The position numbers were made by a program, and so were the translations under genes. This document shows positions 794 to 53,952 of a stretch of DNA of 64,000 nucleotides, piece by piece; positions within the stretch are counted from its first letter, which is position 1; the number at the start of each line of letters is the position of its first letter. This DNA is from Bacteroidales bacterium (lineage in GTDB: Bacteria > Bacteroidota > Bacteroidia > Bacteroidales > UBA12077). The stretch covers positions 12,055 through 76,054 of the forward strand of contig JANQHR010000149.1 of the NCBI GenBank assembly GCA_028282585.1. Direction: 5' to 3'. The notes under the pieces were generated by a model that saw only the letters and a list, made by a program, of their open reading frames with translations, ran no database searches and was not told where the DNA came from.

Positions 794-2113
794 CTATTTT
801 TCAGGATGATAAATAATAGTTACCCGATTATCTTTATTAAAGTATTTTTTTGCAACGCGTTGAATATCTTCGCTAGTTACACTGGTATAGTGCTCAATTA
901 CATTATTAAATTCGCTTGCATCTCCCCAGAAGTGGTAAAATTTGGTAACTTGATCGGCTAAAGATTCAGCATGAAAATAAAAATCGGTATAATTCACTTC
1001 AAAAGCATTTAAAACTTGCTGCAATACATAATCGTCTACAGGTTCATTTTTTAATCGTTCCAATTGTTCTTCCACTTTTGAGATTAAATGTTGCTCCTGA
1101 TTTTCAACGTTGAGTTTTCCTTTTATTCTAAAAGCTCCAACTTTTTCCCAGAGTTCGGTTGTTGCCGAAACATGATTAATTATTGTATCGCTATCGACTA
1201 AAACATCCTTGTCAAAATAAGAATATGAATTATCTCCCGATAAAATTGCTGCAATTACATTCATTACGTAAGAATCTTCATGTGTTTCAGGCATTGCATA
1301 GTAACATAACGCAACAGCGGTTTCTTTTAATCCTTTTTCTGTTTTCTCTATAATTTTTTCTTTTCCGGATGGTGTTCCAAAATTGGTTGGTCTTTTAATT
1401 TCTTTACCTTTAGGAATATCTTTAAAATAATAATCAATCCACTTTTTAGTTTCAGGAATATTTACGTTACCAGCTACAACTAAACATGCGTTATTAGGTA
1501 CATAATATTTTTTAAAGAAGGCATCAAAATCTTTTATTGATGAAGCATCTAAGTCGGCCATAGAACCAATCATATTATGTCCGTATGTTTCGTATGTAAA
1601 CATGGCGCCCATCATATCATAATATGCATTACCCAGAGGTTTATTATCGTAACGCATACGTTTTTCTTCTTTTACAATTTCTCGTTCGCGATCTATGCCT
1701 TCCTCCGTAATTACCGGGTGCAACATTCTTTCCGATTCAACCCATAAGCCTAATTTAAACTCATGAGCCGGTAAAAGCTGATAGTAGTAAGTCACATCAT
1801 AATTTGTATATGCGTTGCAATATCCACCTGCATTCATTACTGTATTTTCGAATTCACCTTGTGGTATATTTTTAGTACCGTGAAAAAGTAAATGCTCGTA
1901 AAAATGTGCAAATCCTGTCCGATCTGCTTCTTCGTTTTTGGAACCAACATGATATTTAGTTCCGACAACAACATTAGGTTCATTTACATCGTGATAAATA
2001 ATTACGTGTAAACCATTGTCTAGATAGTACTCCACGAATTCTGCCATTGGCTTCTTCCTAGCAAACAGAATTGATGGAACTATTAATAAAATCATCAATA
2101 TAAACTTCTTCAT
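794..2113 (-). CDS. M16 (pitrilysin/insulinase) zinc peptidase
   Basis: HXXEH motif (GFAHFYEHLLF), NAYTNYDVT, YYVPNNA. Likely start MKKFILMILL at 2113 (signal peptide). Confidence 0.92.
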   Translation of the reverse strand: MKKFILMILLIVPSILFARKKPMAEFVEYYLDNGLHVIIYHDVNEPNVVVGTKYHVGSKNEEADRTGFAHFYEHLLFHGTKNIPQGEFENTVMNAGGYCNAYTNYDVTYYYQLLPAHEFKLGLWVESERMLHPVITEEGIDREREIVKEEKRMRYDNKPLGNAYYDMMGAMFTYETYGHNMIGSMADLDASSIKDFDAFFKKYYVPNNACLVVAGNVNIPETKKWIDYYFKDIPKGKEIKRPTNFGTPSGKEKIIEKTEKGLKETAVALCYYAMPETHEDSYVMNVIAAILSGDNSYSYFDKDVLVDSDTIINHVSATTELWEKVGAFRIKGKLNVENQEQHLISKVEEQLERLKNEPVDDYVLQQVLNAFEVNYTDFYFHAESLADQVTKFYHFWGDASEFNNVIEHYTSVTSEDIQRVAKKYFNKDNRVTIIYHPEK

Positions 2114-2233
2114 ACTCCTTATTTTTAATAAAGCTATCACTCTAAAACACATTTTATCCTTAATTTCAACCCATCATCAAACCAAAGAAAGCAATAACTA
2201 ATTTTATAAACTTAATTATACTATAATCTATTA

Positions 2234-3190
2234 TTAATCATATGTTGTAGGCATTGTTTGTGGAATCATAATGTTAAAATCGGCTGCATTTTCTTCTTCA
2301 GGTAGTTCTAAATTATTTTCAACATCCCAGGTATGAATTGTAACAATGTTAACTTCCGGGTTATAGTATTTCAAATAATAATAGATACTATCGTAGAATT
2401 TCGAATGGTACGTACCATTGTAGTGTAAAAAATATTGACCTTTTTCCCAATTTTGTAAAATTCTATATGCCATAGTTGCATCCTTTATTGCCTGTGCTTT
2501 TACCAGATTTGAACCTTTGTAAGCCATCATAGCTGATGCAGCCCCTGCATTTTTATTATGAGCAGTATCGTCCGGGCCAAAAACGCTTAGCATATTAGCG
2601 TAAGCAGGCTGAGTTAGATCAAAATGTACCGGCATAGGAGGTAAGTACTGGTATGCTGCTTCAGGTAAACTATCTAAATATTCAACACCCTTTTTATAAA
2701 CAACTTTTGCATAACGACGAGGTATATTGGTACAAACAAATTTTAGATCGTTACGAAGTGCAATTCCCAACAAAGGTTTATAATCTCTGAAGTTTGGCCA
2801 ATTTTTTGCACTTTCGACATAAGCCTTTTTATCAACAAGTTTATGGATCATAAATTCATCCATTAGCAACTGCTGATCCGCTTCCCACATTTCACCACCC
2901 AACACAAGATTTGATCCTTTCTCCTTTAACATCTGCTCAGTAACCATCTTCTTTAACCAGTGCGAAATAGGATCATCATGCATTTCACCGAATAAGCAAA
3001 TATCATGCTTATAAAGTTCTTCCATCATTTCTGAGAAAGTAACTTTCTCTCCTTCAGAATTATAAATTACGTATGCAGGTAAATCGCTTGTGTATGTTTT
3101 CTGTTCATCTTTATTCTTTTTTCTTTTTTGTGCAAAAGATGTATTAACTAATAATAATGATATAAGAATTATACTTGTTAGTTTTTTCAT
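2234..3190 (-). CDS. ChaN/DUF399-like iron-regulated protein
   Basis: GEMHDDPISHW, GGEMWE, WPNFRDYKPL, QAIKDATMA and HYNGTYHS motifs; signal peptide. Confidence 0.8.
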   Translation of the reverse strand: MKKLTSIILISLLLVNTSFAQKRKKNKDEQKTYTSDLPAYVIYNSEGEKVTFSEMMEELYKHDICLFGEMHDDPISHWLKKMVTEQMLKEKGSNLVLGGEMWEADQQLLMDEFMIHKLVDKKAYVESAKNWPNFRDYKPLLGIALRNDLKFVCTNIPRRYAKVVYKKGVEYLDSLPEAAYQYLPPMPVHFDLTQPAYANMLSVFGPDDTAHNKNAGAASAMMAYKGSNLVKAQAIKDATMAYRILQNWEKGQYFLHYNGTYHSKFYDSIYYYLKYYNPEVNIVTIHTWDVENNLELPEEENAADFNIMIPQTMPTTYD

Positions 3191-3202
3191 TTTATATAAT
3201 TT

Positions 3203-4777
3203 TTAAAAGTAAAAGTTTAGACTTGCTTCCCAGAAATATCGGTACTTCTTATCGGTAATTATCGAATATTGATTTATAAATTTTACATCGGTCGGAGTTA
3301 AGTAACGGTATTTAACAAGCAGCTCGGTTCCCAGTTTCTGTGATTGCTTAAACCATTTTATTTCGCCCCCGATTGTATAATAGTTTGTCGCGTGATATGC
3401 AACTTCATTATGTGCAAAAATTTCCGTGTATCTTCTTTGAGCTGCCGCTACAACATCGTGCTTGTAGGACAGATTATACTTATAGCTTCCTTCAATATTG
3501 AAAGCTAATTTGTTACTGGTATTCAATTTAAAAGAATAACCGGTTCTAATATTTGTTGTTAAGTTAGTATAGTCAATTTGATTGGCATACAACATTCCTT
3601 TTTTGCTCACATTTTCATAATCCAATGTCAGTTTGCTTAAATTAAAGAATTTCAAATTTGGCCTCAACAGTTGAGAAGATGCCTTTATATTTATACCATC
3701 GTATATATAAGTTTTTTCGTAAAACCCTCTATATCTATAACCTGTTCCACTTATATATTTTACACTTAGAAAATTAAATATTTTATAATTTGATTTATCA
3801 ATTAAATAAGAACTTAATATATCATGGCTTAAATATTCGTATTTATATAGTTCTTTATGAGTTTTATATATAGAATCGACTGGTTCTTTATGGATTTTAT
3901 TTTCCCATGATTCATCGCCAATATAAGCAGAATAAGAAATAGAAAGTTTATTTTTATTCCCCGTAAAATAACTAATATAATATTTTGGATTTTGATTTTT
4001 TAAAATATATACCTTACTTAAGTCTTCAATTTGATTAAAATCGCCTAATCCTTCATTAAAATATAAATTATATTTTTCCGAATCAGGACCGGTTGAATAA
4101 AATTCGTTCGTAAATTGTGGAGACCCTTTCTTATAAAAATAGGATACTCCTATAGCTATATAATTATTTTGTCCAAATAAATAACTTATAGCTCCTGTTA
4201 ATTCTGTAGTTATATTATAAAACTCATTACGTGTATCGCGCATACGGAAATATAAATCTCCCCGATATCTTACCCCTGCAGCTAAAGAAATTTTATCTCC
4301 AATACGTTTATTCATTAAACCATTTAAGCCATAATGCTTAACATTAAAGTCTCCCGTTCTTTCTGTTATTAATCGGAACGGATTTCCTATTTCAGATTTT
4401 TGATACCCTAAATTCCAATCAGCTTTTTCATGATCGGATATATTAAAAGTAAAATTCCCGTAAAATCTCCATCCTGTTTCTTCAAAAGATTGAACTGATT
4501 CGCTTTTAAAAGAAAATTGCTCATTTTTATCAAATTCATCGATCAACTTAAAACTGCCCTCGTCTATTCCTCCTTTTACAAATATTGCCGAATAATCGCC
4601 ATTATCCCATAATCCGATATTAGAAGGTAAGAATTTGTATACATCAAGTTGTTCTTTCAAATAAAACTCTCTGTTTGGATTATGAACTAATGATAATCTA
4701 ACGTTTGTTGTATCTGAAGCCTTATTTAAACCAACAATACTCTGTACAAAAAATAATATGAGCAAAAATCTTTTCAT
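3203..4777 (-). CDS. Outer-membrane beta-barrel protein (DUF6850-like)
   Basis: Signal peptide, alternating aromatic strands, C-terminal F, 'YFRMRDTR' motif; lies downstream of the DUF4876-like gene. Confidence 0.65.
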   Translation of the reverse strand: MKRFLLILFFVQSIVGLNKASDTTNVRLSLVHNPNREFYLKEQLDVYKFLPSNIGLWDNGDYSAIFVKGGIDEGSFKLIDEFDKNEQFSFKSESVQSFEETGWRFYGNFTFNISDHEKADWNLGYQKSEIGNPFRLITERTGDFNVKHYGLNGLMNKRIGDKISLAAGVRYRGDLYFRMRDTRNEFYNITTELTGAISYLFGQNNYIAIGVSYFYKKGSPQFTNEFYSTGPDSEKYNLYFNEGLGDFNQIEDLSKVYILKNQNPKYYISYFTGNKNKLSISYSAYIGDESWENKIHKEPVDSIYKTHKELYKYEYLSHDILSSYLIDKSNYKIFNFLSVKYISGTGYRYRGFYEKTYIYDGINIKASSQLLRPNLKFFNLSKLTLDYENVSKKGMLYANQIDYTNLTTNIRTGYSFKLNTSNKLAFNIEGSYKYNLSYKHDVVAAAQRRYTEIFAHNEVAYHATNYYTIGGEIKWFKQSQKLGTELLVKYRYLTPTDVKFINQYSIITDKKYRYFWEASLNFYF

Positions 4778-14510: not shown

Positions 14511-14533
14511 AAAATACCAACAATTAGGTATTG
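14511..14533 (+). promoter_or_regulatory. 23-bp conserved semi-palindromic box, copy 1 of 5
   Basis: AAAATACCAACAATTAGGTATTG, ending 32 nt before leader ORF 1. Confidence 0.6.
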
Positions 14534-14565
14534 TCCGTCCGAAATAGAATTTGAACATTTGTATC

Positions 14566-14928
14566 ATGAAAATCTCATTAAGAGACATATTTAAAAAGGC
14601 AGGGTTTATTATCATGATATGTTTTGTTGGTCTAATGATAGCCAACAAAGTTATGTATACGCATATTCATAAACTTGAAGATGGCAGCGTTGTGGTCCAT
14701 GCCCACCCTTATGATAAGTCCGAGAATGAGAATTCAGGAGAAACACACCATCATGTTAAAGCAGAACTATTCTTTTTACAAAGTTTAGAACTTCTGTTTT
14801 ATATGGCAATCTTATCTGGTATTTTATACCTGGGATTTTTAGTTTTAGAAATACTTTCTTACTCTTTTGTTTTATATAAGAGCAATAATTTATCGTTATC
14901 ATTAGGCAGGGCCCCTCCTTGTAACTAA
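14566..14928 (+). CDS. His-rich leader ORF ending in RAPP (putative arrest peptide), copy 1
   Basis: 120 aa from ATG 14566; N-terminal hydrophobic helix, HIH-x9-HAHPY-x11-HHH, RAPP at 14908-14919; paralog at 47850. Confidence 0.75.
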   Translation: MKISLRDIFKKAGFIIMICFVGLMIANKVMYTHIHKLEDGSVVVHAHPYDKSENENSGETHHHVKAELFFLQSLELLFYMAILSGILYLGFLVLEILSYSFVLYKSNNLSLSLGRAPPCN

Positions 14929-15065
14929 TTCCTTACAATTTTATAGGTTTTAATTTTAATTGATGCATGAAAAGCTACTCGCATGTGCATCAGTCTTTTA
15001 CTCAGCTGTAATCATTATAAATGATTATGCTAAAATTAATATCTCATTATAAATAACGATTAGTT

Positions 15066-15410
15066 ATGAGTAATTACTTAAGCCAAACAAAAAACGGACG
15101 TATTTTTCGATGTGCCTCATGCGATAAAATCCACATTGAATTTAATAATATAAACTTCAATTTCAATGATAAGGAGTTTGAGCGTTTTGCAAGTTATTTT
15201 GATGATTTGGACGGTGAGTATTGGGAAAACATGAACTTTCAAATTAACTACCGCAGAAAAATTATTATTCCGGTAGGCCACAAAAACATTAATTTCTTAT
15301 TAAATAAAGAAGAATTGAATGAGCTAAAAAGCCTTTTAGCCAATGCAAATATTTATAACAAACCATTAAAACTCGTTAAGAATTTTAAGTACTCATTTTG
15401 TAATAACTAA
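15066..15410 (+). CDS. Small CxxC-xxH protein (DUF6686-like)
   Basis: NGRIFRCASCDKIHIEFNNI and C-terminal EELNELKSLL...NN pattern. Confidence 0.6.
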   Translation: MSNYLSQTKNGRIFRCASCDKIHIEFNNINFNFNDKEFERFASYFDDLDGEYWENMNFQINYRRKIIIPVGHKNINFLLNKEELNELKSLLANANIYNKPLKLVKNFKYSFCNN

Positions 15411-15416
15411 ATTAAA

Positions 15417-15923
15417 ATGAAAAAAGTAGGAATATTTTACGGTTCATCAACCGGTAACACAGAAACAGCAGCCAATCAAATACAACAAGAACTAGGAACT
15501 GATATGGCTGATGTTAAAGAAGTAATAGACGCAGGTGCAGGCGACCTTGAAGTATATGCAAATATTATTTTGGGGGCCTCGACCTGGGGCATTGGAGATA
15601 TGCAGGATGATTTTGACGTTTTTCTAACAGAATTAGAAAATGCAAATCTTGAAGGGAAAAAAGTTGCCATTTTTGGATTAGGCGATCAGGATACTTATCC
15701 TGACTCCTTTGTTGATGCAATTGGAATAATATATGAAACAATAGAAGGTAAAGGTTGCGAAGTTATCGGAAAAATATCAAAAGATGGTTATAGCTATGAT
15801 GTATCGAAAGCCGAAATCAACGGTGAGTTGGTTGGTTTACCATTAGACGAAGAGAACCAGGGAAATTTAACAAATGAAAGAATCAAGAACTGGATTCAGC
15901 AAATAAAAGGACAGTTTAATTAG
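15417..15923 (+). CDS. fldA: Long-chain flavodoxin
   Basis: IFYGSSTGNT, STWGIG, FGLGDQ, GLPLDEENQ. Confidence 0.95.
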   Translation: MKKVGIFYGSSTGNTETAANQIQQELGTDMADVKEVIDAGAGDLEVYANIILGASTWGIGDMQDDFDVFLTELENANLEGKKVAIFGLGDQDTYPDSFVDAIGIIYETIEGKGCEVIGKISKDGYSYDVSKAEINGELVGLPLDEENQGNLTNERIKNWIQQIKGQFN

Positions 15924-16052: not shown

Positions 16053-16448
16053 ATGAAAATTTCATGTACAGATTATAAATCCGGTGATATGCAGATTTTA
16101 ATGCATCATATTTACGAATTTAAAAAGGGCCTAAGAAACCTGGTGTTGCATACAATGAATAAAAGTGAGCAATACCTAGCCGAAGATTTATTGATGCGCA
16201 AAGGTATCTGCTATAAAATTCAAGAAGTTAATGCATCCAAAATCAATGTGTTTTTTGGTAAAATTCAATGTGTAAGGATTGTCGAATCTTTTGGTAATAA
16301 ATCATTGGCCAATATCTCTGATGAGCAAGATTTCATATTGGGAGTCATGCTTGGATATGATAGAACACAGCAATGTGATAGATATATAAAACGGAAAAAT
16401 TTAAACGCGGAGTTTATTAACAGTCAGGATCTTGCCGTGGCAATTTAA
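16053..16448 (+). CDS. DUF2023 family protein
   Basis: HHIYEFKKGLRNLVLHT, INVFFG, EQDFILGVMLGYD..QC.RY; usual flavodoxin neighbour. Confidence 0.85.
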   Translation: MKISCTDYKSGDMQILMHHIYEFKKGLRNLVLHTMNKSEQYLAEDLLMRKGICYKIQEVNASKINVFFGKIQCVRIVESFGNKSLANISDEQDFILGVMLGYDRTQQCDRYIKRKNLNAEFINSQDLAVAI

Positions 16449-18946: not shown

Positions 18947-19576
18947 ATGAAAAAAACAACATTATTATTAAAGGTACTGTTAATCGTATTAACAACCTCG
19001 TTATTTGTAGCATGCGACGAGGATGATGATCCCAAACCTGCAGAAAATGATACACTTAGTCTTTATACGAAAGATTATACTATCTGGCACTATTTTTCTT
19101 TTGAAAATGGAGTTATAGGCACCGGCTCGGCCGATCCAACTGAATCGGATGATGCAGACTGGAAAGCCAGAACAGATTGGGATCTTGCATTTCATTACAA
19201 GGACGTAAGAACAAACAGTGGTAAATCCGGAGATGGACAAGGTGGTATGCTGGAAGCCACTCAAACAGATTTTGCCCTTGTAACTGAAGCTCCAACATCA
19301 GGTTATACAGTAGATGATGATCTTGATATAAGATTAACTCCGGCAATGCCACCTGTTTATGTTACATCAACAGCAAATTCTGTTTGCGATGATTGGGCCT
19401 CTTATGATCATGCTGAAGGTGCTTGGGTATTTGTAGAAAAAGTTTTTATTGTTAGAACTGCGGATGGGAAATATGCCAAAATATGGTTAAAAAGCTTCCT
19501 TGATGATGAAGATAATTCTGGAACTATCACCATGGACTATGCATACCAATCAGATGGAAGTACAAATCTAGAATAG
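18947..19576 (+). CDS. hmuY: HmuY family heme-binding lipoprotein
   Basis: Lipobox FVAC-DEDDD; WHYFSFENG, WDLAF, VRTNSGKSG, VFIVRTADGKYAKI. Confidence 0.9.
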   Translation: MKKTTLLLKVLLIVLTTSLFVACDEDDDPKPAENDTLSLYTKDYTIWHYFSFENGVIGTGSADPTESDDADWKARTDWDLAFHYKDVRTNSGKSGDGQGGMLEATQTDFALVTEAPTSGYTVDDDLDIRLTPAMPPVYVTSTANSVCDDWASYDHAEGAWVFVEKVFIVRTADGKYAKIWLKSFLDDEDNSGTITMDYAYQSDGSTNLE

Positions 19577-47849: not shown

Positions 47850-48221
47850 ATGAAGAGGAATTTTTTAAACAAAATAAATCGCTTTATTTTATGTCTGTTT
47901 ATCGGATTGATAACCGGATATATTTTCAATTCTATATTTTTTCTTCATAGCCATACGGATCTTAATGGTAAGAAAATTCAGCACGCCCACCCCTATAAAA
48001 AAAGTTCGGATAACAACTCCTTACCAACTCACCATCATACTTCAGATGAAATCGTTTTTTTAGAATTTAGTTCAATACTATTTGAATTTACAAATGAAAT
48101 TGTGTTAGAACACTTTTCTAGTTTCGTTAGCACAATTTCTTCTTATGAATATTCGTTTAGCAAGAATTCGTATTTCTTCACTAAAAGTGCACGTGGTCCG
48201 CCAAATTTAATTTCAGCATAG
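47850..48221 (+). CDS. His-rich leader ORF ending in RGPP (putative arrest peptide), copy 2
   Basis: 123 aa; hydrophobic N-terminal helix, HSH-x9-HAHPY-x11-HHH, RGPP at 48192-48203. Confidence 0.75.
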   Translation: MKRNFLNKINRFILCLFIGLITGYIFNSIFFLHSHTDLNGKKIQHAHPYKKSSDNNSLPTHHHTSDEIVFLEFSSILFEFTNEIVLEHFSSFVSTISSYEYSFSKNSYFFTKSARGPPNLISA

Positions 48222-48365: not shown

Positions 48366-50756
48366 ATGAAAACAATTAAATTATACTTATCCCAATTAAT
48401 TTTATTTATTATCATCACAACCAACGCTTTTGCGCAGCATACAGACGCTAATATTGTTGGGCACGTTACGGATAAAAATGGCGAACATATTCCATTTGCC
48501 ACGATTGTGCTTCAAAATACAACTGTTGGAACAGCCACAGACGAAACCGGTCATTACAGTTTAATTAATATGCCCATAGGAAAATTTGTTATTAGAGCAA
48601 CAGCAGTTGGTTACAAACCTCAAGAAAAAGAGGTAGAGCTAAAAGAAGATCTAACTATTGAAGTAAAATTTGAATTGGAAGAAGATATACTTGGCATTGA
48701 ACAGGTTGTTGTTACAGCTGACAGGAACGATAAAAGAAGAACCGAAGCTTCGGTAATTGTAAATACCATAACTCCAAGAATATTTTCAGTAGCGCAAACA
48801 GCAACAATCAGTGACGGATTAAATTTCTGTCCGGGGCTTAGAATGGAAAGTAATTGTCAGAATTGTGGTTTTTCCCAAGTAAGAATGAACGGAATGGAGG
48901 GCCCTTATTCACAAATTCTAATTAATAGTCGTCCAATCTTTAGTGGTTTAGCCGGTGTTTATGGGTTGGAACTTATCCCATCAAGTATGATTGAAAGAAT
49001 GGAAGTTATTCGTGGTGGAGGTTCTGCACTGTACGGAAGTAACGCGATTGCAGGAACAATAAATCTGATCTTAAAAGATCCGATAAACAACTCTTACGAA
49101 GCTGGTATAACCTCGGGTTATACAGGTATTGGTGTTGACGGTGGTGGCAACCCGGCTTTTGATTATAATGTTAATTTTAATACTTCGTTAGTTTCGTCAG
49201 ATAGTAAAACCGGTATGGCTTTATATGGTTATCATAGAAATCATGACGCATATGATGCAAACGATGATAGTTTTTCGGAAATTACCCAGAAAAATAATAT
49301 AACCGTTGGAACAAGAGTTTTTCATCGGTTTGGCCATCGTAATAAAATAGCACTCGATTTTTTTACTATTAACGAAGACCGCAGAGGCGGTGATAGTTTA
49401 GGTTTACCTGAACATCGGGCAAATATAGCAGAATCCTTAGGTCATAAAATAACGACAGGAGCTCTATCATTTGATCAATTTTTCAGAGAAAGCGACAAAT
49501 TATCATTATATACGTCCGGACAAAAAGTAAATCGCGATTCTTATTATGGTGCTGAGCAATCTTTAAAAGATTACGGTAAAACAGTCGGCTTTACGTATAT
49601 ATTTGGAGCTCAATACTCTGCTAATTTTTTAAATTCTAATTTAACAGGAGGTTTTGAATATAAGGGGGAAACATTAAAAGATGAAAAGCTAGGCTATATA
49701 GATTTGGAAAATGCTCAAATTATTAATGATAACTTAGTAGCTCCAAATGTTGGAAATAGTTTAGTGGCAGATCAAGATCTTTCAATATGGGGAGCTTTTG
49801 CTCAATATGAACGTGCTTTTAATAAATTAAGTGTTTCCGTTGGAGCCAGGTTTGATCATTATATGATTGAAGATAATGACCATAATTCAAAAAAAGAAGG
49901 AAATGTTTTAAGTCCCAGATTAACATTAAAATACGACATTCTCAATTCACTTCAGGCTCGTTTCAGCTATTCTCAAGGATACCGTGCACCACAAATCTTC
50001 GATGAAGACCTGCATATTGAAGCATCTGCTTACAGAACTGTCATCCATGAAAACGATCCTAACTTAAAGCAAGAAACCAGTCAGAGTTATATGGCATCAT
50101 TAGACTTTAATAAATTGATCGGAAACGTAAATCTTGGATTTTTAGCAGAAGGATTTTACACGAAATTAAATGATGCTTTTGCAAGTGCACCGGAGGATCA
50201 CCCAACTGAAGAAGGTGTAGTTATATATACAAGGGTAAATTCAGAAGATGGCGCTGTTGTTCAAGGAATAAATATGGAGCTAAACCTTGTTCCTGTCGGA
50301 ACAGAATTCTCATTAACCGGGGGATTTACAATCCAAAAAAGCGAATACGAGAACCCTCAGGAAGAATTTAATGAAAAAAGCTTTTTTAGAACACCTAATA
50401 ACTATGGTTATTTAACCCTGGATTGGGATTTATACAAAGGTTTTCGCTTTTCGGCAACCGGAAATTATACCGGAAGTATGTTAGTTCCGTATTACGGTAC
50501 TGAACTTCCTGCCGGAGATGTAAGAGATACTGGTGAATTAAGAGAATCAGATCCATTTTTTGATATTGGAACAAAGTTAAGCTATCAGTTTAAATTAAAT
50601 GGTGCCAGTATGCAAATGTTTGCTGGAATGAAAAATATATTTAATTCTTACCAGAACGATTTTGATGTTACAAAGGACAGAGATCCTGGTTATCTATATG
50701 GTCCGTCATTACCAAGAACAGTATATTTTGGAGTTAAAATAGGTAATCTTTTATAA
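48366..50756 (+). CDS. TonB-dependent receptor with CxxC in the plug domain
   Basis: CPGLRMESNCQNCGFSQVRMNG, GGGSALYGSNAIAG, YRAPQIFDEDLH. Confidence 0.92.
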   Translation: MKTIKLYLSQLILFIIITTNAFAQHTDANIVGHVTDKNGEHIPFATIVLQNTTVGTATDETGHYSLINMPIGKFVIRATAVGYKPQEKEVELKEDLTIEVKFELEEDILGIEQVVVTADRNDKRRTEASVIVNTITPRIFSVAQTATISDGLNFCPGLRMESNCQNCGFSQVRMNGMEGPYSQILINSRPIFSGLAGVYGLELIPSSMIERMEVIRGGGSALYGSNAIAGTINLILKDPINNSYEAGITSGYTGIGVDGGGNPAFDYNVNFNTSLVSSDSKTGMALYGYHRNHDAYDANDDSFSEITQKNNITVGTRVFHRFGHRNKIALDFFTINEDRRGGDSLGLPEHRANIAESLGHKITTGALSFDQFFRESDKLSLYTSGQKVNRDSYYGAEQSLKDYGKTVGFTYIFGAQYSANFLNSNLTGGFEYKGETLKDEKLGYIDLENAQIINDNLVAPNVGNSLVADQDLSIWGAFAQYERAFNKLSVSVGARFDHYMIEDNDHNSKKEGNVLSPRLTLKYDILNSLQARFSYSQGYRAPQIFDEDLHIEASAYRTVIHENDPNLKQETSQSYMASLDFNKLIGNVNLGFLAEGFYTKLNDAFASAPEDHPTEEGVVIYTRVNSEDGAVVQGINMELNLVPVGTEFSLTGGFTIQKSEYENPQEEFNEKSFFRTPNNYGYLTLDWDLYKGFRFSATGNYTGSMLVPYYGTELPAGDVRDTGELRESDPFFDIGTKLSYQFKLNGASMQMFAGMKNIFNSYQNDFDVTKDRDPGYLYGPSLPRTVYFGVKIGNLL

Positions 50757-51072: not shown

Positions 51073-53952
51073 TTATTGTTTAATAAATCGCTTTGTAAAA
51101 GATCCGTTATTACTTTCAATTAATAAAATATAAATGCCACTTTTTAAATCAGCAATATTAATATTTTCTTCTTTTTCAAAGATTTGCATTTCTTTTACAA
51201 CTACACCAGATAATGCAATAAACTTTACTTTAACATTTTCATATGGTACCATTATGTTTAGCTCATTTTTAGCCGGATTTGGATAAAGCTTAATTTCTTC
51301 CTCTTCCATAAACAATTCTTTTACTGTTAAAGTCTTTGCTTTAACAGCTGGTTGAGCTAAAGCAGCGGTCCGGGTAGTTTTCCCTGTAATTCTTATATTA
51401 TCAATATAAACGTCATCTTTATTACCACTCGCATCACACATAAAGCGAACTTTCATTCCCGTTGGGAAATTATAGTCCAATTCATCAATTGAAACTGTTG
51501 TTGAGTAAAATACATCATTTTCAAAATCAATTGAACGAGCATAAGTTGCAACAGTATGCCAAGTCGATCCATCGTAATATTGTACCCAAAAATCTTCGCT
51601 CGAGTTATCCATACTATAAGCATAGTAATGAAATTCAACATCGATTTGAACAAATCCCGGATTATGGACATCAATTCCATTTGTTAGATAAAATGACGAT
51701 GCTACTCCCGAATTATCCTGAATTCCTGCAGAATTATTTCCTTCATAGGAATAAGTCCCGGAAGTATAAAGAAAACAATCTGCGCCTCCATCTGTCCAAA
51801 CTCCCCAGCCATCTTCAAAGGTCGAATATGCAAGTTCCACATCACCTCCCGGATTATCGGCTACAATGGTTGCAGTAGTTTGGGTGCTGTTTGTAGCATT
51901 ATCATTATCAGTAACTGTTAAACTAACATTGTAAACATTTGCTGTAGAATAGGTATGTGTTGGATTAGCCTGAGAACTTGTTGAACCATCCCCGAAATCC
52001 CACAAATAACTAATGATATTACCATCCGAATCGTTTGAACCACTGCTGCTAAATGAAACATCCACATTTTCGGTTCCATTATACGGGCCATTAATTACAG
52101 CTACCGGATCCTGATTTTGTGGCGGTAAACCTTCACTTATAATCACTGTGTAATCTTCAACTTCGCCGTAAGTAAAGGTCTCACATGGAGTTGCTGATCC
52201 ACCATATTTCATACTTATTCTCATGCGAGTAATTGTTTCTGCTGTTTCGGCCGGAATTGTTATTGTTCCGTTAACTGTTGAACTACTTGATGCGCTATAG
52301 ACATTCTCATTTAAATCGTCAAAATCGCCATCATGATTTAGATCAATCCACATTTCCCAATGTTCCGTATATGAAGATCCACTAAAACCTGGCGTTAAAG
52401 AAACATTATACTGATTTCCGGCAACTAAATTTGCCGACATGGCTGTAAAATCATAATATCCGTTATTAACTCCTGAAGCGTTAATTAAATCTCCCACTTC
52501 AATTCTATCAATCCATGCATAACTTGTTACATTTCCCTGAGATGCACAGTATGTTATATCGTCTAATAATGTTGTAAATGTTGCCGATGAAGAAAAATCA
52601 CTGCTTAATTCAGCGCAATTACCTCTAACCTGAAACTCATATGTAGTTCCTAAAGTAAGATTTGTTAAACTATATGTGTTTGTTGTTAGGTTTACTTCAT
52701 TCCATATACTTTCTGTAATTGACTTATATTTTAAATCGTATGATATTGCACCTGTAAAATTCCAGCTTAAATCAGCAGTTGTTGTTGTTAGGTTTGAAGA
52801 TGAAAGCCCTCCAGGCACGTAACACGTTGTTCCTCCATTTGGCGGATTTGCACCAGTACAACCGCTACATGAACCACCGGTATAATTAAATCCTGCATAT
52901 CCGCCTGTCGTATACCAATCTTCCCAATCGCCTCCTGAGGCAGTGTACCAATCCTTTAAATCAAAGCTTCCACTACCGGTTGTTTCTCCTTCTATATGAT
53001 ATGCTTTTACTGCCTCTCCATTATTATACCAAACCAGTTCAGATCCGGCTTGAATCGTTTCCGGACCAACTCCATTAGTTTGTAAAAAATATGCTGCGGC
53101 ACCATCACTTGCACCATTTCCATAAACAGTAGCTATTCCGTTACCATCTATACAAACATGAGTAGCCTCCTCGCAAATAATAGCATAGGATGGCAGTTGT
53201 CCACCGTTATCCGCATATACACGAGCTAAAAAGCCGAAAGCACGACTATAACGATTTTCTCCACTTAACACCCTATCAGCATGGGTTTCGGTAATAACAT
53301 TATTTAAATAAGGAACATTTAAAAAATCATCGTGAAAAATATCACTGGTATAAGAATGATAAGGATTGTCAAGAATTTGAGAACCCAATACAGCAGACCC
53401 GCTAGGTGCATAATAAGAGTCTCCCAGAATTGCCATTCCTGCACTTGTTCCGCTTACAGGAACTCCTTTAACATTTATGGCATGATTAATAGCATCCTCA
53501 ACTTTAGTATTTTTCCAGTTGTTTTCATAATTATCCTGATCACCACCTGCAAAAAATATTGCTTCTGCATCGAGAATAATTTGTTCAACTGCCGGATCAT
53601 TTGCCGCTTCAATATTGTTAATTGCTATTTCCGCAGCCGAACTTAATAGATGACTCCAGTTAGACCACGCCCAACTGGCTTGGCCTCCGGGACTTCCATA
53701 ACGAATAACCAAATAATCTCCACCATCGGCATGTTGCAGAAACCATTCAGTTGCGTTATCACCCCAACTGGCGCCTACTTCGGCTCCCCCAATTAACATA
53801 ATAGCTGAACTAGGGTTAGCGGTTGTTGAATTTACCGTCCCTCCTTTAACGGAGTAAATGTAATCTGATTGTGCATTAACAAAATTGGTCGAATAAAAAG
53901 AGAGAATAGCAGATGACAATAAACAGAAAAGGGTAATTTTTTTTGTTTTCAT
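51073..53952 (-). CDS. Secreted S51/cyanophycinase-like peptidase with FN3, GEVED, PKD and T9SS C-terminal domains
   Basis: LIGG, IFFAGGDQ, GTSAG; YEFQVR; YGEVEDY; WDFGDG; LYPNPA...GIY...KRFIKQ. Confidence 0.85.
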   Translation of the reverse strand: MKTKKITLFCLLSSAILSFYSTNFVNAQSDYIYSVKGGTVNSTTANPSSAIMLIGGAEVGASWGDNATEWFLQHADGGDYLVIRYGSPGGQASWAWSNWSHLLSSAAEIAINNIEAANDPAVEQIILDAEAIFFAGGDQDNYENNWKNTKVEDAINHAINVKGVPVSGTSAGMAILGDSYYAPSGSAVLGSQILDNPYHSYTSDIFHDDFLNVPYLNNVITETHADRVLSGENRYSRAFGFLARVYADNGGQLPSYAIICEEATHVCIDGNGIATVYGNGASDGAAAYFLQTNGVGPETIQAGSELVWYNNGEAVKAYHIEGETTGSGSFDLKDWYTASGGDWEDWYTTGGYAGFNYTGGSCSGCTGANPPNGGTTCYVPGGLSSSNLTTTTADLSWNFTGAISYDLKYKSITESIWNEVNLTTNTYSLTNLTLGTTYEFQVRGNCAELSSDFSSSATFTTLLDDITYCASQGNVTSYAWIDRIEVGDLINASGVNNGYYDFTAMSANLVAGNQYNVSLTPGFSGSSYTEHWEMWIDLNHDGDFDDLNENVYSASSSSTVNGTITIPAETAETITRMRISMKYGGSATPCETFTYGEVEDYTVIISEGLPPQNQDPVAVINGPYNGTENVDVSFSSSGSNDSDGNIISYLWDFGDGSTSSQANPTHTYSTANVYNVSLTVTDNDNATNSTQTTATIVADNPGGDVELAYSTFEDGWGVWTDGGADCFLYTSGTYSYEGNNSAGIQDNSGVASSFYLTNGIDVHNPGFVQIDVEFHYYAYSMDNSSEDFWVQYYDGSTWHTVATYARSIDFENDVFYSTTVSIDELDYNFPTGMKVRFMCDASGNKDDVYIDNIRITGKTTRTAALAQPAVKAKTLTVKELFMEEEEIKLYPNPAKNELNIMVPYENVKVKFIALSGVVVKEMQIFEKEENINIADLKSGIYILLIESNNGSFTKRFIKQ

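Follow-up and report, generated by a model that had tools for sequence, protein, structure and literature searches.

His-rich leader proteins with a C-terminal RxPP motif upstream of TonB-dependent receptor genes in Bacteroidota: candidate translational arrest leaders with a predicted metal-sensing loop

Two small open reading frames (ORFs) of a Bacteroidales bacterium, here referred to as ORF A and ORF B, encode paralogous His-rich proteins that end in RAPP or RGPP a few residues before the stop codon. Both are located in the 64,000-nucleotide (nt) stretch of DNA that was analyzed in this study (assembly GCA_028282585.1, contig JANQHR010000149.1, positions 12,055 to 76,054 of the forward strand), which is called the window throughout (coordinates in Table 1). 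Based on the sequences of these proteins and of their relatives we favor, with moderate confidence, the reading that ORF A and ORF B are cis-acting arrest leaders of the RAPP/RGPP type with a His-based sensor, in which both the stall and the binding of metal are predicted. This reading is carried by an RxPP motif that is kept across a large family, by the fixed distance of the motif from a cluster of His residues, and by the position of the leaders directly upstream of one clade of TonB-dependent receptor genes.

The two proteins share a basic N-terminus, which is followed by a hydrophobic helix, and carry H33xH35, H45-A-H47-P48-Y49, H61H62H63 and R115-(A/G)-P117-P118 at identical residue numbers, with 51 residues between H63 and R115 in either case. 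An earlier note on this DNA, made from the sequence alone, had described the same ORFs, motif register, 51-residue spacing and R115-A/G-P-P, all of which are borne out by both translations. The note also called the alignment gapless; this is accurate for the motifs, whose numbers agree when both proteins are aligned from M1, but a single 3-residue gap within the N-terminal helix is introduced by BLASTP (32% identity over 116 residues, E 1e-18). The start of ORF A was set to the ATG at 14566, which is in the family register, while the longest reading frame opens at a TTG at 14551. A third paralog on another contig of the same genome encodes 125 amino acids (aa), ends in ...TRGPPSQSLQV and lies 146 nt 5' of a paralogous receptor gene. 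As judged from this third paralog, from the 551 family representatives described below and from the near-invariant RxPP at a fixed distance, the likeness of ORF A and ORF B exceeds what would be expected by chance. A further weak match to ORF A (L004, G000:C160:13014-13178; E 0.09, 27% identity) is interrupted by two in-frame stops and could be the remnant of a fourth copy or mere noise.

An exhaustive phmmer search, for which ORF B served as query, returned at least 551 matches at E ≤ 1e-3, each representing a cluster at 50% identity, and nearly all of the 150 representatives among the matches listed are 116–127 aa long. The main conservation counts were obtained from two unpicked sets. The first comprises 153 proteins, namely the 150 listed matches minus one plus four further word-index matches, the protein removed from these 154 before counting being repetitive and 1571 aa long (P0014). 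The second comprises 80 genome loci that were chosen solely by the pattern HAHPYxKSx[DNE] and confirmed by tblastn; one of their ORFs runs off its contig, which leaves 79 complete ORFs. An alignment of 85 picked, mostly full-length sequences was used to score individual columns.

Neither ORF A, ORF B nor the 85 aligned relatives matched any Pfam or NCBIfam family. With the DUF2946 profile (PF11162), ORF A and ORF B gave no match at E ≤ 1 and the 85 members none at E ≤ 0.01; no Cys column is conserved among the 85 sequences, and a conserved CxxC or CxxxC ligand motif was not found there. Going by the missing profile match and the missing Cys motif, we regard the family as unnamed and as distinct from DUF2946, to which it may be remotely related. 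The public names of ten family clusters consist of "hypothetical protein" and two evidently spurious labels. A literature search of full texts, which did not extend to the supplementary lists of PMC12992588 and PMC9973294, where members of the family may be named, found no paper describing this His family. The earlier note knew of no characterization of the family, and the published main texts indeed do not name it, but the class to which it belongs is in print in bulk (PMC12992588, PMC9973294). The carriers of the 80 loci are almost all Bacteroidota (Bacteroidales, Prolixibacteraceae, Proteiniphilum, Draconibacterium, Marinilabiliaceae, Rikenellaceae, Lentimicrobiaceae and a few Flavobacteriaceae), with one metagenome-assembled genome labelled Calditrichaceae; Proteiniphilum acetatigenes DSM 18083 (L033) and Labilibaculum manganireducens (L089) are examples in culture. 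In an even sample of the phylum the family occurred in 11 of 301 genomes, a patchy spread that leaves out the twelfth and weakest match, the DUF2946 member L015 (see below).

An RxPP motif stands near the C-terminus of 146 of the 153 proteins (RAPP 91, RGPP 27, RSPP 24, RPPP 2, RDPP 2) and of 75 of the 79 complete ORFs (RAPP 49, RSPP 17, RDPP 4, REPP 3, RGPP 1, RPPP 1); two of the four complete ORFs without it have K-S/A-P-P at this place and the other two are truncated. The PP is followed by one to six residues in 132 of the 146 RxPP proteins, by two in ORF A and by five in ORF B. HxHP and RxPP are exactly 70 residues apart in 102 of the 145 proteins having both motifs (range 68–76) and also at 66 of 75 loci of the locus sample. 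Since all six Arg, all four Ala and all four Pro codons occur at the motif, selection acts on the peptide and not on an RNA motif. R[AGSD]PP does not occur in any of the 2756 ORFs of at least 200 aa in the genome that harbors ORF A and ORF B (31.9% GC), as compared to eight occurrences of A[AGSD]PP, these numbers being small because PP is rare in an AT-rich genome. Six small ORFs (60–200 aa) of the same genome have R[AGSD]PP at their end, among them the three leaders described here, and four of the six sit directly upstream of TonB-receptor or metal operons. By analogy to the structures of ApdA and ApdP, P117 of ORF A would presumably occupy the P site and P118 the A site of the stalled ribosome. 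RAPP-type motifs have been reported to arrest elongation (PMC10951233, PMC12992588). The arrest by RAPP and RGPP is described as robust and not relieved by EF-P, RSPP and RDPP as partially permissive in ApdA and ApdP, and all four as being among the most avoided tetrapeptides in bacterial proteomes, those of Bacteroidota included (PMC12992588). The residues A, G, S and D at the x position of the family are the set reported to be arrest-permissive in ApdA and ApdP (PMC12992588), and for this reason the analogy to the copper-responsive leader CruR, which the earlier note had drawn, is well founded.

The fourth of the small ORFs upstream of such an operon (L098:307-699, + strand, contig C16) encodes 130 aa with a TTG start and a hydrophobic N-terminus. 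The protein is rich in Cys and His, with HYNHSCC, then CPVC, 44 residues and RAPPIQLV-stop, a spacing near the 45 residues of CruR, and its ORF ends 47 nt before the gene of an 802-aa CarbopepD_reg TonB-dependent receptor (L098:747-3155, +). This Cys-rich leader matched no Pfam or NCBIfam family, and the NCBIfam name "HYC_CC_PP", which applies to Cys-rich Bacteroidota leaders, was for this reason not used for it.

The anatomy of the protein was derived from a family profile of 102 sequences anchored on HxHP and is given here in the numbering of ORF A. A basic N-terminal tail (mean net charge +3.1) precedes the first hydrophobic helix (residues 12–26 of the profile), which is likely an N-in signal-anchor, and N27 is conserved. 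The polar residues 31–66 contain the three HxH pairs together with G40, K51, D54, P57 and K59. H33, H35, H45, H47, P48, H63, R115, P117 and P118 do not vary among the 85 aligned sequences, at least 90% of which also have H61. Residues 67–78 with the conserved E67...L71...L77-F78 lead into a second hydrophobic stretch, which in the family average covers residues ~76–90 with a mean Kyte-Doolittle hydropathy (KD) above 2. A 15-residue window with KD ≥ 1.8 between the third HxH and RxPP was found in 118 of 145 proteins; most commonly the segment ends 28 residues before the last Pro, the distance being 26–31 residues in 99 of these 118 proteins. The KD of the segment is 2.39 in ORF A, 1.28 in ORF B and 0.69 in the third copy. 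Residues 91–113 have near-maximal entropy (3.3–4.1 bits) and yet a fixed length, and residues 114–118 read G114-R-A-P-P. A model computed with AlphaFold2 (AF2) on the 85-sequence alignment (mean predicted local distance difference test score, pLDDT, 78.5) consists of a helix at residues 5–31, a beta-hairpin with strands 32–36 and 42–46, a disordered stretch at 47–64, a second helix at 65–105 and a disordered tail. In the hairpin H33/H35 and H45 are on opposite strands, and H47 is located just past the second strand. The charge distribution agrees with an N-in, loop-out, C-in topology.

The earlier note had assumed that the 51-residue spacer simply spans the exit tunnel and the translocon, so that the His cluster would be periplasmic during the stall. 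This geometry is probably too simple, since the spacer contains the second hydrophobic segment in ORF A and in 118 of 145 members, and the His cluster may be cytoplasmic or periplasmic during the stall. We think that the fixed length could act as a ruler, which would place the hydrophobic segment at the onset of membrane insertion while the His loop modulates the force. A transmembrane helix begins pulling at ~45 residues (PMC7886326). With a hydrophobic segment on either side, a loop this short may be able to traverse the membrane only as a hairpin.

ORF A ends 137 nt before a gene of the DUF6686 family and ORF B 144 nt before a TonB-dependent receptor gene, which confirms the position about 140 nt upstream given in the earlier note. 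At the 75 of the 80 loci that had a downstream ORF to score, the next gene was a homolog of the receptor gene behind ORF B, on the same strand, in 70 cases, a DUF6686 gene in two (L018 and L019, whose leaders are most closely related to ORF A) and another gene in three; the median gap was 122 nt. The flavodoxin/heme operon behind ORF A is a rare context, which was seen at two of the 75 loci and in the window. RxPP, the spacer length and the position upstream of TonB receptors, which the earlier note had proposed to test across Bacteroidota, are all conserved in the family. Its placement of both leaders before metal-acquisition operons is right in that they lie upstream of TonB receptors, but the flavodoxin/heme operon is the exception and one receptor clade the usual partner. 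Clustering of the flanking ORFs of the loci gave no shared partner beyond the receptor, and the commonest flanking cluster, present at five loci, was read as FeoB by eye from the N-terminal sequence. A sequence search of the PDB with the partner receptor returned only distant plug-domain matches (colicin I receptor, heme receptors) and did not identify the substrate. A more distant His-type relative from the phylum sample, L013 (G031, 1492-1839), contains HSH...IVHSH, ends in LRAPPSLY and precedes, instead of a receptor gene, an RND efflux pair (HlyD_D23/CusB-like, 1971-3074, and ACR_tran, 3076-3333).

The sequence TAnnTTTG, which corresponds to the consensus of the Bacteroidota -7 box, was found no more than 60 nt upstream of the leader ATG at 41 of 74 loci, 15–16 nt before the ATG at 24 of them, as compared to 4 of 74 intergenic regions between leader and receptor and a background of 0.04 per 60 nt. 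Its presence before the leader and its rarity in the intergenic region suggest a single leader-receptor transcript with a very short 5' untranslated region. If TAnnTTTG is indeed the -7 box, the mRNAs of the 24 of 74 loci would be nearly or entirely leaderless. An exact TAnnTTTG is missing before ORF A and ORF B, which are preceded by TAnnnTTTG-like sequences only. A perfect palindrome lies upstream of ORF A (Table 1), and sequences matching it at 9–10 of 10 half-site positions occur 46–48 nt before the ATG at 6 of 73 loci, versus 0.8% of 5696 background 100-nt blocks. The palindrome may be an operator that overlaps the -33 region of the leader promoter; if it binds a transcription factor, the unit would also be controlled at the promoter.

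A possible output of a stall at the end of the leader is an RNA helix which joins the stop region of the leader to the next start codon. We searched for duplexes between the segment from the A-site codon to 8 nt beyond the stop and the 5' end of the receptor gene together with the intergenic region before it. At 22 of 74 loci, ORF A among them, the best duplex of at most -8 kcal/mol covers the in-frame start codon, whereas control windows of the same leaders reach this in 201 of 2960 cases (6.8%); the hits are concentrated in leaders with two-residue tails after PP (19 of 36). When the register was fixed by pairing the stop-codon U to the A of the AUG, at least 11 of 13 pairs formed at 17 of 75 loci, with UUUCAUAAUAUCA and UGAUAUUAUGAA as typical arms. 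Compensatory changes are present at L045 and L096, where a UAG stop faces a C, and at L081, where AAAAA pairs with UUUUU. Mean pairing was 11.7 within a locus versus 11.1 across loci, and this covariation is modest because the arms are otherwise conserved. The candidate helix of ORF A has 13 bp and -12.6 kcal/mol in a register that differs from that of the subclade. These data point to a stop/start-codon helix in a subclade, perhaps including ORF A and not including ORF B.

Two further features were noticed around the ORF A helix. Within 15040-15071 of the window, CUCAUUAUAAAUAA just 5' of the DUF6686 start is kept in L018 and L019 and can pair locally with AUGAG, and the start region there has the highest opening energy within the small ORF A clade (11.0 kcal/mol versus a mean of 6.4 for 62 loci); CUCAUUAUAAAUAA may compete with the 3' end of the leader for the start codon. 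A hairpin, GATGCATG...CATGTGCATC (14962-14991), lies ~35 nt after the ORF A stop and is similar in L018 and weaker in L019. No U-tract adjoins it, a terminator was not called at this place, and no intrinsic terminator was found in the ORF A intergenic region.

Several known leaders resemble the family in part. CruR of Bordetella pertussis (Bp2923, DUF2946/PF11162) combines CxxC with RAPP; according to the published account its stall protects the transcript from Rho, and copper releases the stall (Roy et al. 2022, PMC9426467). The copper that CruR senses is reported to be cytoplasmic. As in CruR, the product of the upstream ORF (uORF) is small, exported or membrane-targeted and encoded directly 5' of a TonB-dependent transporter, and the intergenic region is long (162 nt there versus 137–146 nt here). 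Both also have a fixed distance from the ligand motif to RAPP, which is reported to be 45 residues, within 1–2, in more than 2000 proteins of the CruR type (PMC9426467) and is 70 residues from HxHP or 51 from HxH in most members here. In contrast to the Cys ligands (CxxC) of CruR, the family has six His in three HxH pairs, and most members carry the second hydrophobic segment in the spacer. Furthermore, the relatives of CruR are found mostly in Proteobacteria and those of ORF A and ORF B in Bacteroidota, and the output of CruR is relief from Rho termination, whereas a start-codon helix is seen in a subclade here. When compared by hhalign, the family profile and the DUF2946 member L015 aligned over their whole length, with a probability of 48.3% and an E of 1.8e-4 at 15% identity over 112 columns. 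L015 (G161, 1501-1857) reaches 24.6 bits with DUF2946 against a cutoff of 23.7, contains H-rich and CxxC motifs and a C-terminal RGPP, and lies upstream of the genes of a 377-aa protein and a ZnuA-family binding protein (3061-3348 is also marked at this locus). L015 also matches the His-family profile weakly and may be a bridge between DUF2946 and the His family.

The second metal-responsive system, CutF of Rhodobacter capsulatus (DUF2946), is described as sensing periplasmic copper, with a stall that melts a stem over the ribosome-binding site of the next gene (Ozturk et al. 2023, PMC9973294; 10.1101/2025.02.05.636593). It likewise is a nascent, co-translationally exported leader that senses metal and whose C-terminal Pro stall melts an RNA stem, and with regard to stem melting the helix-bearing subclade looks the same. 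CutF differs by its CxxxC and its EF-P-dependent PPP, by the direction of the response, as copper prolongs the stall and thus switches a detoxifying oxidase on, and by the site that is hidden, which is the Shine-Dalgarno sequence there and the AUG itself here. The 5,334 CutF-like proteins reported include many from Bacteroidota as well as His-only clusters; the His-only clusters 14 and 17 are described as adjoining HupE/UreJ genes (PMC9973294), whereas the partner here is a TonB receptor. ApdA, ApdP and ApcA are small proteins that also have a RAPP or RGPP near the stop, an N-terminal localization signal and a position 5' of the regulated gene, but they are themselves monitoring substrates, encoded before sec or yidC genes, and have no metal-ligand cluster, whereas the gene that follows here encodes a TonB-dependent receptor. 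RAPP/RGPP uORFs with localization signals have been reported as enriched before TonB-dependent receptors across Gram-negative phyla (Fujiwara et al. 2025, PMC12992588). The "TonB-related" class of that study is defined such that ORF A and ORF B fall within it, and both may be in its data set; the class is a bulk statistical one, and the His motifs, the 70-residue spacing, the second segment, the partner clade and the helix do not appear in the main text (PMC12992588). In SecM, MifM and VemP a pulling force on the nascent chain frees the stall and the stalled ribosome opens RNA over a downstream start, which is similar to what is proposed here; these leaders differ by other arrest sequences (save for the RAGP likeness of SecM), by monitoring the secretion machinery and by having no ligand cluster.

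Based on this comparison, the following mechanism is proposed. A promoter of the leader itself would drive transcription of both the leader and the downstream receptor gene or operon, and the N-terminal helix of the leader would anchor the nascent chain in the inner membrane. The loop with the three HxH pairs would come next and then, in most members including ORF A, the second hydrophobic segment, while a linker of ~24 residues, fixed in length and free in sequence, would together with GRAP fill the exit tunnel as elongation stalls at G-R-A/G-P-P. Whether the His loop is metal-bound or free would set the duration of the stall, probably via a folding or membrane-insertion force, and the stalled ribosome would alter the expression of the downstream gene. 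In the subclade, and possibly in ORF A, it could do so by melting the helix between the leader stop region and the next start codon; in ORF B and others a different route would be taken, for example the shielding of the transcript from Rho as in CruR. The expected logic is that the stall means ON under metal scarcity and that metal releases the stall and turns the receptor OFF, because CruR behaves in this manner and because the partner is an uptake receptor. A more specific version is possible but rather doubtful: a hitherto undescribed His-based transmembrane nascent-chain metal sensor, in which the linker sets the second segment exactly at the ribosome exit, metal-gated insertion of the hairpin pulls the chain out of arrest, and the stalled ribosome controls a dedicated TonB-dependent uptake receptor by unmasking a start codon from the leader's own stop on a near-leaderless mRNA, in a phylum without Shine-Dalgarno initiation.

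A number of observations weigh against the proposed mechanism or parts of it. ORF B and the third copy have only a weak second hydrophobic segment, and therefore one force mechanism cannot fit all members. The ORF A helix is matched in strength by 2 of 20 control windows, and it is weak in the nearest relatives, L018 and L019. In an ensemble analysis of opening energies at 62 loci (12 with gaps outside 20–260 nt were left out), the median effect of the stall on start accessibility was ~0 across the family. At 10 of 62 loci, versus 3 of the 62 controls, the effect amounted to at least 2 kcal/mol (Wilcoxon p = 0.057). The opening ddG of ORF A was 1.1 kcal/mol versus 2.25 kcal/mol at the control position. 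Start-site unmasking as a family-wide mechanism was rejected on the basis of this median and of ORF A doing no better than its control. Neither a stop/start helix nor an intrinsic terminator was found in the intergenic regions of ORF B and the third copy. The loci are mutually related, so that counts taken from them overstate their independence. Iron or heme is hinted at only weakly, by FeoB beside five loci and by the flavodoxin/hmu-like cluster behind ORF A. Finally, export genes may be controlled by a sensor of the L013 type, for which the regulatory logic would have to be reversed.

The absence of a helix at some loci bears on a sub-variant of the preferred reading, in which sensor and arrest are the same and the output is transcriptional. 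Here the stall would block Rho-dependent termination in the ~120–145-nt intergenic region; this would cover the ORF B-type loci and perhaps all loci, and the start-codon helix would be a clade-specific addition. The intergenic regions of ORF B and the third copy, which lack both helix and intrinsic terminator, have minimum free energy folds no stabler than shuffled sequences (z 0.57 and -0.12), and intergenic regions in general are slightly richer in C than in G (mean 16.6% versus 12.8%; C exceeds G in 55 of 75). CruR, with its 162-nt intergenic region, is reported to work by a Rho mechanism (PMC9426467). On the other hand, the intergenic region of ORF B itself, with 10% C and 9% G, is poor rut material, and we consider a Rho-based output tentatively as one possible route.

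Arrest could also report the state of membrane insertion or of the envelope (Sec/YidC capacity, proton-motive force or TonB-related stress, as in SecM, MifM and VemP) instead of metal, with a structural or other role for the His residues. RAPP-type leaders were reportedly first found as monitors of the localization machinery, and the second hydrophobic segment lies at the distance from the peptidyl transferase center where transmembrane helices start pulling. This distance is of little help for ORF B and the third copy, which have no strong second segment. Moreover, the next gene at the scored loci is nearly always a TonB-dependent receptor gene and not one for a Sec or YidC component, and the three HxH pairs, with five invariant His and a sixth found in no less than 90% of members, are hard to explain without a ligand. 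We therefore regard an envelope monitor as unlikely.

A small, stable metalloprotein with two helices in the inner membrane, which would act in trans with the receptor, for instance by passing on or reducing the imported metal, and have RxPP as a pause or stability element, is also improbable, although it would account for the N-terminal two thirds, which are conserved like a folded protein and modelled by AF2 as helix-hairpin-helix, for charges that fit a defined topology, and for the tight pairing with one receptor clade, which suits a functional partner. What such a partner alone would not lead one to expect is a hypervariable linker of fixed length and an otherwise avoided arrest motif near the stop, and the stop/start helix of the subclade indicates coupling in cis; both roles could coexist. 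The notion of a chance ORF or annotation artefact, raised by the many spurious ORFs that AT-rich sequence yields, was rejected as extremely improbable in view of the 551 representatives, the invariant motifs including RxPP kept through synonymous codons, and the conserved context.

Table 1 Features of the ORF A and ORF B regions of the window
Feature	Position	Strand	Details
Perfect palindrome ACAATTAGGTATTGT	14520-14534	no strand	46 nt before ORF A start
ORF A	14566-14928	+	120 aa; His-rich leader protein; end ...SLGRAPPCN, stop
N-terminal hydrophobic helix, ORF A residues ~12-26	14599-14643	+	family hydropathy, AF2 helix 5-31
His cluster, three HxH pairs H33xH35, H45xH47-P48-Y49, H61xH63	14662-14754	+	alignment
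Second hydrophobic segment, ORF A residues ~76-105	14791-14880	+	hydropathy, AF2
R115-A116-P117-P118 codons of ORF A	14908-14919	+	predicted arrest site
ORF A candidate helix, 5' arm	14918-14930	+	Pro118 codon, last two codons, stop, 2 nt beyond
ORF A candidate helix, 3' arm	15058-15070	+	includes DUF6686 ATG 15066-15068
DUF6686 gene, first after ORF A	15066-15410	+	PF20391, E 1.3e-31
Flavodoxin gene	15417-15923	+	PF00258, E 2.7e-24
DUF2023 gene	16053-16448	+	profile match
TonB-dependent receptor, 721 aa	16763-18928	+	profile match
HmuY-family lipoprotein	18947-19576	+	PF14064, E 1e-26
CobN/Mg-chelatase-family protein, 1564 aa	19668-24362	+	PF02514, E 2.2e-300
ORF B	47850-48221	+	123 aa; paralogous leader; end ...SARGPPNLISA, stop
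R115-G116-P117-P118 codons of ORF B	48192-48203	+	predicted arrest site
TonB-dependent receptor, 796 aa (CarbopepD_reg, Plug, barrel)	48366-50756	+	usual partner clade

The order of the genes 3' of ORF A is hmu-like, as in Porphyromonas. Beyond the receptor gene behind ORF B, the minus strand of the window (51073-53952) encodes a 959-aa secreted protein, the C-terminal end of which presumably resembles a type IX secretion sorting domain, as would suit DNA from the Bacteroidota.

To our knowledge, CruR and CutF are the only stalling nascent-chain metal sensors that have been studied, and both are Cys-based, copper-specific and proteobacterial. We consider it a well-supported prediction, and not a new principle, that the family described here works like CruR and CutF and yet is distinct from them. 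If the prediction is true, the principle extends to His ligands and probably to another metal, with iron/heme, zinc, nickel and cobalt as candidates, and to the Bacteroidota, which initiate translation differently from model bacteria. The design would be membrane-integrated, and the insertion of a helix may generate the force. With its linker of fixed length and no conserved sequence, the family offers a clean natural test of the ruler idea in arrest peptides. The ligand of the leader, once known, would also suggest the substrate that the partner receptor imports.

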